Assembly: GCA_951406725.2 (NCBI GenBank)
Contig: OX597817.1
Coordinates: forward strand, 98,146,001-98,210,000
DNA from: Octopus vulgaris
Taxonomy: Eukaryota
Direction: 5' to 3'
Length of the DNA stretch: 64,000 nucleotides
Shown in pieces: positions 7,767 through 47,988 of the stretch (the first letter of the stretch is position 1; each line of letters opens with the position of its first letter). Below the pieces are notes generated by a model. The model searched no databases, was not told the origin of the DNA, and saw only the letters and a program-made list of their open reading frames with translations. The translations under genes were made by a program, and so were the position numbers.

Positions 7767-7826
7767 GCAATCTCGAGTATAACTAGCTGAAATTGCGAAG
7801 ATAATCTGGAACTCAACTGAGGAAAG
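7767..7826 (+). ncRNA. Permuted hammerhead-like motif (degenerate copy)
   Basis: GCAAT-C-TCGAGT ataa CTAGCT-GAA-ATTGC ...ACTCAA-CTGAGGA; stem III GCAAT/ATTGC, stem I TCGAGT/ACTCAA; stem II poorly paired. Confidence 0.5.
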
Positions 7827-8519
7827 AAAACTCTGAATGACCCATCCTTGTTTTCTTTGTATCATCTGTGTGGATGTTTTATTGTCCCCTTTTTGTACCA
7901 TCTAACTGTCTGGATGTTTTGCGTTCTTGTCCCATTTTTGTATTTTTTATATATAAAAATATAGCAGTGTATGTACACTTTGGTCTCTTATATGTAAGTA
8001 TATATATCTAAATTTTGTACGACTCTATTATTCTTTCATTCTTTCCTTCTTTCTATCAGCCTTTTCCCACTTACTTCATTTATTCCACTCTTCGTTCTCC
8101 CTCTCTCACATTTCCTGGCCTTCTCTTCATGCTCACTTTCCCTCCTCTTTTACTTCACTATGTCCCTTTCATTTTTTTCTCACCCCTCCTTAACTCTTCT
8201 ATTCCTCTGCCCCTACCTCTCTCTTTTCTCTCTCCACATGACCAGTGTTCAGCTAAGCCTGACCTTTCTTTTTTGGTTCAACTACCATCAGCTATAATTG
8301 TCTTTTTTTTTTAAATAAATAGACATAATATAATGTCTAAAAGTTGATGAATACCACCTCTTGGTCCCCTCCATTTTCTTATTGCTATATAAATTAAGGG
8401 TAAAATAACTTTTTACCCTCACCCATTTATTACACTCGGTAATGTAATTGCCATGCAATGGAAAACACTTGTGTATTAATAATTGGGTATTCTACCAGCA
8501 GTATATTGGATAGATATTA

Positions 8520-8665
8520 TCATTTGAGTGTGGCCATGCTGAAGTACCACCTTTTACTTGAAGAAGTTGAACCCTGGACTTATTCTTTGTAAGTCTGGTG
8601 CTTATTCTATCAATAACTTCTGCTGAACTGCTAAGTTACAGGGACATAAACACACCAGCATTAGG
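8520..8665 (-). mobile_element. SINE 3' fragment
   Basis: Reverse complement ends GGTGGTACTTCAGCATGGCCACACTCAAATG, the same tail as 23891-23940. Confidence 0.6.
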
Positions 8666-8699
8666 GAACAAACACAAACAAAAATATACACAAATATAT

Positions 8700-9540
8700 A
8701 TGTAGGTATGTATTAGAAGAAATGAAGTACTCAGAAAATCGGATGGTTTATATTTACAGATATTTATTTGTATATTACATTTTTTATACATCATATAACT
8801 TAGATCATGTATTAACACTTACTCCCATTCTAGTGGGGTTTTCAAATCAAACTAAGTTCCTGTGTGAAAAGTTTTGACCATTTTATAGTGGTATTGAGTT
8901 TGTAGTGGCGGGGAGGAATATAAGACAGTACAAGGGGGTGATGGATGAGGAGAAAGTGAGAGAGAGAGAGCATGTGTGTGTATGTGTTTTTGTATTTGGA
9001 ATGAGTGCTAAAGAAAAAGAGGGGAAGGGAGAGGGAAGAAGATAAGAATTTTTTTGCTCTGCTTGACAGGATGCTTACTCCAAGGGGGATCTAAGATCTT
9101 TGGGAAAAAGAATTTCAGTTTTGACCATTTCATAGTGTTATTGAGTGTGGTGGCGGGGATGTAGACCATAAATTATATTTCTTTTTATCATTGTGAGAGT
9201 GTGTGTTTAATGAGGGATGGTCAAATGGCTTTTTGGGTTTAGGGAAGAAGAATTCTTTTTATGATTGTTTTGTGGAGGTGTGGGTGTCTGTGAGTTTGGA
9301 GAAGGGAAGAGAGGAGAAAAGGAAAAAGAAAAAAAAAGAGGAAGGAGAAATAATTGTGTTGATATTTATACCACTATATATATATATACATACATATACA
9401 TAAAATATTAGAAAAAACCACCTTTTATCAATTCAAAATGAATAATTAAATTACACCATCATAGAAAAGTTAAAATTAAAATGACAATTAAAAAGTAAAG
9501 ATTAAGTAAATTACAAAAATAATATAATGTATATAATAGG
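8700..9540. repeat. Dispersed repeat; inverted paralog at ~48280-49230
   Basis: Shared blocks such as GAAATGAAGTACTCAGAA, TAGTGGGGTTTTCAAATCAAACTAAGTTCCTGTG and AAAAGTTAAAATTAAAATGACAATTAAAAAG. Confidence 0.75.
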
Positions 9541-9541
9541 A

Positions 9542-9940
9542 CTAGCAGTATCGCCCGGCGTTGCTCGGGTTTGTAAGGGAAATAACTATATAAGCATTTT
9601 TAGAGAGTTATAGCCAAAAAAATAGCAAAAAAATGCATTAAAAATGGAAAAAAAATGATGGTAAATTTTTTTTTTAATCGTTGACTCATTGTAGACATTT
9701 TTAGAGAGTTACTTCCTTATATAATAGCAAAAAAATGCATTAAAATGGGAAAAAATGATGGTAATTTTTTTTTTTTAATCGTAGACTCATCGTAGATGCG
9801 TGCTAATACCCAGAAGGGCTCGATATGAATCACGACTATAAGATACCCGGTTTTGGTTAAACTGCACCGCAAAATGTGGGAGTAGTTAGGAATCTAAATC
9901 GTAGGAGACAGACACACAACCTCTCTTTTATATATAAAGA
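9542..9940 (-). mobile_element. Non-autonomous Helitron
   Basis: Minus strand: 5' TC, 3' hairpin CCCGAGCAACGCCGGG followed by CTAG, inserted between A and T with no TSD; internal ~110 bp duplication. Confidence 0.8.
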
Positions 9941-47068: not shown

Positions 47069-47097
47069 TATATATATATATATATATATATATATAC

Positions 47098-47490
47098 ATC
47101 CATAGAGAAGGAAAATTTAAGATCTTTCCCTTCTACAAATGTCCGAAGAACGACACCTCTTTCAGTAGGAATATGGAAAAATATTTCATAGCTAAGTTCT
47201 CCCCCAAATTAAATGGCTGAAATTTTACTCATCATACATTGAAGAACAAGTCTTTCAAATTACAATATAATATAGTAGAACATTTAATATGTGTGTGTAT
47301 ATGTATATATATATATGTGTGTGTATATATTACCTGTTATATACATTATATTATTTTTGTAATTTACTTAATCTTTACTTTCCAATTGTCATTTTAATTT
47401 TAACCTTCCTATGATATGCAATCTTCAGGATGGTGTAATTTGATTGTTCATTTTGAATTGATAAAAGGTGTTTTTTTTCTAATATTTCAT
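47098..47490 (+). mobile_element. PLE 3' remnant (GIY-YIG C-terminus)
   Basis: Reads GKFKIFPFYKC...RNMEKYFIAKFSPKLNG*. Confidence 0.55.
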
Positions 47491-47648
47491 GTATATAGAT
47501 ATATATATATGTATATTATTAAATAAAACATATGCATATATATATATACATATATGTACCTCTACATGTATATCGCCATGTTGATTCGTTAGCTACTGCA
47601 CGCATTTTTTTTTCTCTCCTTCTTTCTGTGTTTTTCTCTCTCTGTGTA

Positions 47649-47686
47649 TCTTTCTGTTGAAGAGCGTAGGCTCGAAACGTTAAAGA
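47649..47686 (+). ncRNA. Minimal hammerhead variant (core CUGUUGA)
   Basis: TCTTT-CTGTTGA-A-GAGC gtag GCTC-GAAACGT-T-AAAGA. Confidence 0.5.
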
Positions 47687-47929
47687 CTTGTTTTATTTAT
47701 ATTTCCTGAGCGCCATACTAATACAATTGTTCGTTTGTTTTCCACCTGCCTTCGTCTTTTGTTTATTTTCATAAAGCTTCCCGTTATATACACGCATATA
47801 TGGGTACAGGACACCAAAAAAACGTCGAACACAATGAGAAACGGAAACATAAACACAAAAAAAGGAACTGGACATTTTTCTTAAACAACAACAAAAATAG
47901 AGTACAGGACAAATAACACAAGGAAAATT

Positions 47930-47988
47930 CCCCTTTTTTCAGTCGCCATGGTTTCATCTACTCTGCGTTTCGAAGGTAACGCACGCAT
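47930..47988 (-). ncRNA. Permuted hammerhead-like motif, decayed copy
   Basis: TGCGT...CCTTC-GAA-ACGCA...TGGCGA-CTGAAAA-AGGGG; flanks match the 20-26 kb family. Confidence 0.45.

Follow-up and report, generated by a model that had tools for sequence, protein, structure and literature searches.

How might a hammerhead-like RNA fold when its conserved strands come in a reversed order, and what spreads it through a genome? These questions are raised by a stretch of 64,000 nucleotides (nt) from Octopus vulgaris (GCA_951406725.2, contig OX597817.1, positions 98,146,001 to 98,210,000 of the forward strand; hereafter, the window), in which a sequence-only reading had reported nine copies of such an RNA. 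The assembly has 2.8 Gb in 227 contigs, and the window is AT-rich (36% G+C) and full of (TA)n tracts and retroelement remnants. In this work, we found that the motif is a predicted self-cleaving hammerhead with scrambled strands, in which two extra helices (X and P0) interrupt the catalytic strand and hold its parts in place. In the reading that we consider likely, this split-core hammerhead resides in non-coding retroelement units that would have been copied from circular RNA and inserted in (TA)n by a Naiad-type Penelope reverse transcriptase (RT). Comparison of the copies established, at the level of sequence, the six-helix pairing, the fixed catalytic nucleotides, and an insertion anatomy of the Penelope type.

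Fold and Covariation of the Split-Core Hammerhead

The reversed block order (UH site, then GAAA, then CUGANGA) was present at all nine reported places. Consensus sequences were derived for ten subfamilies (A1, A2, A3, and B-H; 11-32 copies each), and family N was added as the eleventh. CUGANGA, GAAA, the U16.1-A15.1 pair, and a non-G nucleotide at position 17 are fixed in 11/11 consensi, position 17 being C, A, or U and never G. As had been claimed, stems I and III covary, with 54/55 and 44/44 Watson-Crick pairs, respectively, compared with about two per helix for pairing across families, and the linker from stem I to stem II is short (3-6 nt in 10 consensi).

The earlier assignment of stem II did not hold. 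It had paired the GAAA-side strand with the strand that follows CUGANGA, in a register described as ambiguous, and this yields 12/55 pairs (register 0) or 17/55 pairs (register +1), no better than pairing across families. The true partner is a strand 21-28 nt upstream of the site, beyond two more helices, and this position explains the apparent ambiguity. With this strand, 52/55 Watson-Crick pairs form across the 11 consensi, G10.1-C11.1 is kept, and five versions of the stem occur (GAAGG/CCUUC, GAGCA/UGCUC, GUGCC/GGCAC, GGCUG/CAGCC, and GACAC/GUGUC). What remains of the initial description is thus a hammerhead-like RNA with a non-circular strand order and covarying stems I and III, with a different partner for stem II.

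From 5' to 3', the first half of the motif consists of the X strand, hairpin P0, the 5' strand of stem II, the T strand, and a block with a stem III strand, the UH site, and a stem I strand. After a linker of 3-6 nt, the second half follows with the 3' strand of stem II, GAAA, and the other stem III strand, then the T partner, the stem I partner with CUGANGA, and the X partner. The X strand directly precedes P0, P0 ends directly before the 5' strand of stem II, and helix T starts directly after that strand, its partner preceding stem I; the X partner is the strand that follows A9. Joints among X, P0, and stem II mostly have 0-2 unpaired nucleotides. Because helices X and P0 enter between A9 and G10.1, these two nucleotides would not be covalent neighbours, and the predicted core is a five-way junction in which stems I and II cross. 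A stretch of ~130 nt in a single unit accommodates all six helices, whose stems have 4-10 pairs.

Support for this layout comes from shuffling and from alignment. When the upstream part was shuffled 200 times in each of 10 families, no shuffle reached the combined score of II, T, P0, and X; in the eleventh (N), this score exceeded 498/500 shuffles. In a MAFFT alignment of five related rows (a real copy from each of A1, A2, A3, G, and H), made without structure input, 93.5% of 155 cells pair, against 41-49% in slid controls. Both sides changed in 17 of the 31 pairs, affecting all six helices, and 0/500 shuffles reached this level; helix T has 4/7 such pairs, with 80% of its cells paired. Two other alignments were left out of the count: a ten-family MAFFT alignment, in which the lineages were out of register with each other, and a four-row alignment of B, C, and D. 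ViennaRNA, which is unable to fold crossing stems, predicted P0 for most of the families and stem II for B, C, D, and partly F alone. Chance complementarity in AT-rich repeats might be expected in a window so rich in repeats and with 36% G+C, but it is refuted by the covariation counts and has a negligible probability: compensatory changes occur in every helix, and a strict descriptor that allows shifted stem II registers matched 5/9 window copies and nothing in 10 locally shuffled windows. The same descriptor gave one match in 60 random 10-kb samples of the genome.

We also considered a plain hammerhead of type SGC (site, GAAA, CUGANGA), in which the strand immediately downstream of CUGANGA would supply stem II and the helices further upstream would represent an off-state or be irrelevant. 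In A1, A2, A3, G, and H, that downstream strand can form four pairs (two of them G-U) in register +1, and one extra nucleotide at A9/G10.1 is normal in the type SGC ribozyme HRIMA-1. However, the same pairing is limited to 0-2 pairs in B, C, D, E, F, and N, and the downstream strand tracks changes in helix X rather than those in the GAAA-side strand, which makes this explanation very improbable.

In a kink-turn, two helices are joined by a 3-nt bulge that is flanked by tandem G.A pairs. At the joint between stem III and T, tandem GA/GA with a bulge of 2-4 nt was found in 10/11 consensi, compared with 1.46 expected by chance. The bulge has 3 nt in C, D, E, G, and N and 2 or 4 nt in five more, and it is absent in F. 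The III/T joint is a candidate kink-turn, which could bring T back against stems I and II.

Copies in the Window

The nine places stand, yet they are not nine independent events: they derive from four insertions of tandem units plus one more and represent five subfamilies. The units and motifs are as follows.

24199..26662, +: subfamily A1 array of three head-to-tail units (836-840 bp), 5'-truncated, with a fixed 3' end into (TA)n
24658..24790, +: complete split-core hammerhead, A1 copy 1; predicted site after C24734
24658-62 with 24786-90, +: helix X of A1 copy 1
24663-24705, +: hairpin P0 of A1 copy 1
24706-11 with 24744-49, +: stem II of A1 copy 1
24750 and 24779, +: core blocks GAAA and CUGAAGA, respectively, of A1 copy 1
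25494..25626, +: complete split-core hammerhead, A1 copy 2; predicted site after 25570
26334..26466, +: complete split-core hammerhead, A1 copy 3; predicted site after 26410
20309..21545, +: subfamily A2 partial dimer, period 790 bp, older, ending in (TA)n
20430..20554, +: split-core hammerhead, A2 copy 1, stem I partly decayed; stem II 5' strand at 20473, predicted site after 20499
21219..21344, +: split-core hammerhead, A2 copy 2; stem II 5' strand at 21263, predicted site after 21289
33893..35196, -: partial dimer of subfamily B with a period of 847 bp; another repeat truncates its 3' end at 33893
34750..34914, -: complete split-core hammerhead, B copy; stem II 5' strand at 34838, predicted site after 34817
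33903..34066, -: complete split-core hammerhead, B copy; stem II 5' strand at 33991, predicted site after 33970
7760..7950, +: copy of subfamily C whose 5' truncation lies 12 nt before the site (7772) and which lacks the stem II partner, P0, and the X partner; activity not expected
47510..47979, -: copy of subfamily A3 with a truncation in the site block and the core CUGAAAA at 47942, split by another insertion; activity not expected

Seven of the nine copies (20490, 21280, 24727, 25563, 26403, 33915, and 34762) have intact CUGANGA and GAAA, a GUC or AUC site, and 4/4 pairs in stem III and 4-5/5 pairs in stem I; these seven keep the core and its three stems. The other two are 5'-truncated. The copy at 7767 has intact blocks, but the truncation 12 nt before the site removed its stem II partner. 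The copy at 47930 is truncated within the site block and carries A in place of G8. Its TGCGT strand of stem III had been offered as a case of covariation; this strand lies outside the aligned part (matches begin at query base 9), so the copy is not a clean case. The A3 consensus does have the TGCGT stem III seen there.

The cleavage positions proposed earlier, C24734 and C33970(-), agree with a sequence check of the core, the cleavage itself being predicted. An RNA spanning 24720-24800 would lack the upstream stem II strand and would therefore probably not cleave, and the span 24650-24800 would be needed. The expectation that standard searches miss the motif was borne out, as no hammerhead family is among the 150 of 260 Rfam matches listed for the window, and no match was obtained at the Rfam gathering score in 10 loci.

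Carrier Units and Arrays

Each motif sits in a repeat unit with a period of mostly 720-865 bp (three outliers in F and G). This tandem retroelement carrier and its link to Naiads had been overlooked in the sequence-only reading. Units of A-H are dispersed and non-coding, contain no open reading frame (ORF), and hold one ribozyme each. In their arrays, the 3' end is fixed and leads into (TA)n, the 5' end is truncated to varying extents, and as many as three units can be joined to a partial one; inverted copies are occasionally seen. For each query, 40-43 copies were scored in genome searches, out of 530-2522 first-look candidates, which are not copy numbers. Profile searches of 100 random 10-kb samples detected 19 motifs, whole or partial, which corresponds to a rough 50,000 genome-wide.

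Copies of A1 and B are 96-100% identical. For subfamily B, 4/10098 sites (0.0004) differ within arrays vs. 2568/308016 (0.0083) between arrays; the corresponding values for A1 are 62/14686 (0.0042, including an inverted segment) and 3360/366917 (0.0092). Among variants in B, 23 are shared array-wide and three are not. Multi-unit insertions run through the site without a scar. Five of the 24 usable 5' ends fall within -2..+13 of the site, with offsets uncertain by 1-2 nt in four families; this count excludes 16 rows that belong to an unrelated repeat in the F reference, a single end lying at the edge of its locus, and all rows away from the 3' part.

Additional copies were observed outside the window. 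Single copies of further subfamilies are present at L280:2700-2850, L333:2894-2976, L235:1900-2001, and L067:9206-9283, one of them with another compensated stem I. At L210:1527-1631 and L277:9363-9593, the 5' end forms a fold-back at the ribozyme or close to it, which suggests that the template was switched there. Pieces of the unit were also found in assembled contigs of sequencing runs labelled as three other organisms; these contigs show no ends, strand, or joints and thus say nothing on cleavage or circles.

Relationship to Naiad Elements

Naiads target (TA)n and show 5' truncation, partial tandems, and inverted copies (Craig et al. 2021, PMC8557442). In the same paper, they are reported as lacking canonical hammerheads, with 'HHR_core' and 'HHR_half_core' flags left unexplained, and the cephalopod Naiads are described as long inactive. 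We found by eye that the 3' end of a published Octopus Naiad consensus shows the split layout. A pattern taken from this Octopus Naiad tail had 273 exact matches in the genome, and the control had none. The family N consensus fits the split-core model, ends ~80 nt later in (TA)n, and matches the 3' untranslated region of the Octopus Naiad by eye. Among 14 family N loci extended further upstream, 12 contain the motif. Remnants of the RT end and a full motif lie on one strand in 3/14, and a fourth combines such remnants with a partial motif. RT-like motifs are found in decayed frames of three loci (L408, L412, and L413), the N-terminal endonuclease being beyond the stretch covered.

For a wider view, 19 of the 54 published Naiad ends were read by eye over ~450-500 nt each, with names assigned by file order; 14 of them had been picked for a core flag. 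Seven show the split form: two from Octopus and those of Euprymna, Darwinula-4, Beroe, Clytia-3, and Morbakka-2, with an imperfect stem II in Euprymna and just two pairs of stem I in Beroe. Four others (Heligmosomoides, Nippostrongylus-2, Nippostrongylus-3, and Stegodyphus mimosarum) show an intact hammerhead of type CSG, and one has a partial motif.

The units of subfamilies A-H contain no ORF with an N-terminal GIY-YIG and a C-terminal RT and are non-autonomous at best. No Naiad RT remnant was found in 270 A-H loci, and fragments of other Penelope elements lie near eight of the 270, the two upstream ones being L160 and L240. Naiads probably carry non-circularly permuted hammerheads, of type CSG in nematodes and a spider and with a seventh wiring, the core-opened five-way form, in ctenophores, cnidarians, crustaceans, and cephalopods. 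The latter form would have spawned tens of thousands of still-active retrozyme copies in the octopus, which are predicted to cleave with A9/G10.1 broken.

Proposed Mechanism and Alternatives

In the mechanism that we propose, a transcript through a tandem array would very probably be cut once per unit at the UH site. Ligation would then close the monomer into a circle, and reverse transcription would start at a fixed point and continue around it for a variable distance, a step that we favour with less assurance. Reverse transcription would be primed at nicked (TA)n. As the source of the enzyme, we slightly prefer a Naiad-like element with this fold in its own tail. A fixed start combined with a variable run around the circle would account for whole-plus-partial arrays without a scar at the site.

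One alternative holds that the fold is real but that cutting is lost or rare. The motif could then serve as a 3'-end structure for the Penelope protein or as a protective element, and arrays would come from uncut linear multimers. The scar-free passage of multi-unit insertions through the site, the absence of a clear pile-up of 5' ends there (5/24), and an opened core that is a predicted catalyst only would all suit this explanation, which we consider unlikely given that the catalytic nucleotides are fixed in all 11 consensi while every helix changes, that position 17 is never G, and that related, intact type CSG hammerheads occupy the same place in other Naiads.

The remaining alternative is somewhat less unlikely. 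Here, cleavage would proceed as a dimer or in trans between units, or linear tandems would be processed without a circle, and the enzyme may be a non-Naiad Penelope that targets (TA)n. Minimal Penelope hammerheads are reported to cleave as dimers according to a cited title, other Penelope remnants with ordinary type I motifs are present in the window, and the 3' ends of A-H show no visible likeness to that of N. On the other hand, the six helices are complete within a single unit, and the array-wide sharing of variants in B fits a monomer bottleneck.

Cleavage of single units, circular copying, and Naiad-type insertion remain the explanation that we prefer, and a number of observations count against it. 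The homogeneity of arrays is compatible with circular monomers and also with copying of an already uniform linear array. Cephalopod Naiads are reported as long inactive while A1 and B are young, which bears on the supply of the Naiad enzyme. The RT remnants of family N, which are decayed pieces, had no match in Pfam or PDB, and 7/19 Naiad ends have no motif in the displayed part (~450-500 nt). As for the fold, helix T is irregular in A1 and A3, helix X is imperfect in N and E, and stem II of family E is weak (2/5 pairs in register, four with a bulge). The consensi are related and do not represent 11 independent events, and the model was derived from the same families; in families C and E, one 50/50 C/T consensus position was taken as C. 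Furthermore, the literature searched contains no tested precedent for a chain break and two helices at A9/G10.1.

Comparison With Known Systems

Six permutations of the hammerhead blocks are possible, and insertions of more than 1-2 nt between CUGANGA and its stems are unknown according to Eckert et al. (2023, PMC10085705). In that paper, the SGC accessions are IMG/M records, and type CSG comprises two sequences, both of which cleaved. Similar to the type SGC ribozyme HRIMA-1 (PMC10085705), the octopus motif has the order site, GAAA, CUGANGA, a short stem I-II linker, and a full core. Its helix T is located where the tested interaction helix of HRIMA-1 lies, after the 5' strand of stem II and before that of stem I. 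However, the published block C is continuous, whereas here the stem II 5' strand and the interaction strand have moved to the 5' end, with X and P0 inserted. In contrast to the IMG/M-derived SGC sequences, the octopus copies are animal genomic retroelements. Type CSG, as which four Naiad ends (three nematode and one spider) were read, shares the same reversed block cycle; unlike the form in the window, it keeps A9 joined to G10.1.

Metazoan non-LTR (long terminal repeat) retrozymes likewise consist of dispersed tandem units that are non-coding and contain a single hammerhead (Cervera and de la Pena 2020, PMC7229834; Li, Clavereau, Pollet 2026, 10.64898/2026.07.22.740005). They are thought to move as circles with Penelope machinery and have units of 51-972 bp (PMC7229834; 10.64898/2026.07.22.740005), a range that includes the octopus unit length. 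They differ in being defined and found by type I hammerheads, whereas the octopus order is S-G-C. The words 'octopus' and 'cephalopod' do not occur in the main texts of PMC7229834 and 10.64898/2026.07.22.740005. The 5' truncation, partial tandems, inverted copies, and (TA)n targets are shared with Naiads (PMC8557442), which differ from subfamilies A-H in that the latter have no ORF.

The motif has the core blocks, the UH site with A15.1-U16.1, and the covarying stems I-III of the hammerhead class, and its cleavage is predicted. It is, as judged from these comparisons, a predicted ribozyme that would work like the hammerhead of a retrozyme and that lies outside type SGC and the type I retrozymes as defined. 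The sequence-only reading had called for a check of novelty: the plain type SGC was already published (PMC10085705), and our literature searches did not find the split form. No description of the split-core wiring, or of permuted hammerheads in Naiads or octopus, was found in the literature searched, which did not cover subscription papers. In the available parts of PMC13725137, PMC10162972, PMC3088659, PMC6765202, and PMC6155905, no helix is inserted at A9/G10.1. Hammerhead variants with additional helices have been reported (PMC13725137, citing Weinberg et al. 2015) and may bear on the novelty of X and P0.

Other Features of the Region

Hammerhead motifs of the ordinary order (minimal type I) are present at Penelope ends at 4592(+), 44384(+), and 39338(-). 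An inverted pair (39199-39352 and 44370-44523) surrounds a Penelope remnant. At 42916-44154(-), a 412-codon open frame with a GIY-YIG-like endonuclease end and a cysteine-rich linker, without a Pfam match, represents a remnant of a Penelope with a C-terminal endonuclease. A short repeat at 22608-23011 and 23512-23672 contains CUGAAGA in an inverted pair (22699- and 22842+), with a GGCCCGAAAC stretch 50 nt later; it is possibly another Penelope end with a long stem II hammerhead. Among the random samples, L089, L091, L095, and L110 have descriptor matches in type I order, two of them with a stem III of 10-12 bp.

The region 26947-33895 is a nested inverted structure (88-100% complementary) with the arms 26947-27151/31666-31869, 27525-27701/31113-31289, 28544-29270/29566-30292, and 31983-32606/33275-33895, and is either a fold-back insertion or an assembly artefact. 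A 149-bp tandem repeat lies in both arms of the inverted pair (32011-32436 and 33449-33867). A 445-nt pure T run between (TA)n tracts (5751-6195) is probably a sequencing or assembly artefact, and 100 N are located at 41830-41929. Long RT-bearing frames of long interspersed nuclear elements (LINEs) were found at 45104-46876(-), 17548-19586(+), and 10793-12472(-), with 590, 374, and 559 codons, respectively, and many copies of a 62-69 bp unit repeat are associated with them.

Implications

If the split-core reading is true, it would break the published rule that the CUGANGA block cannot be interrupted, and censuses of ribozymes based on three-stem descriptors would miss a large class. The natural entry of two helices into the core would be a ready handle for ribozyme switches. 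For animal genomes, non-circular permutations would move from metatranscriptome contigs into retroelements at high copy number. For Naiads, the finding would provide a testable answer to why they seemed free of hammerheads and what the 'half cores' are.

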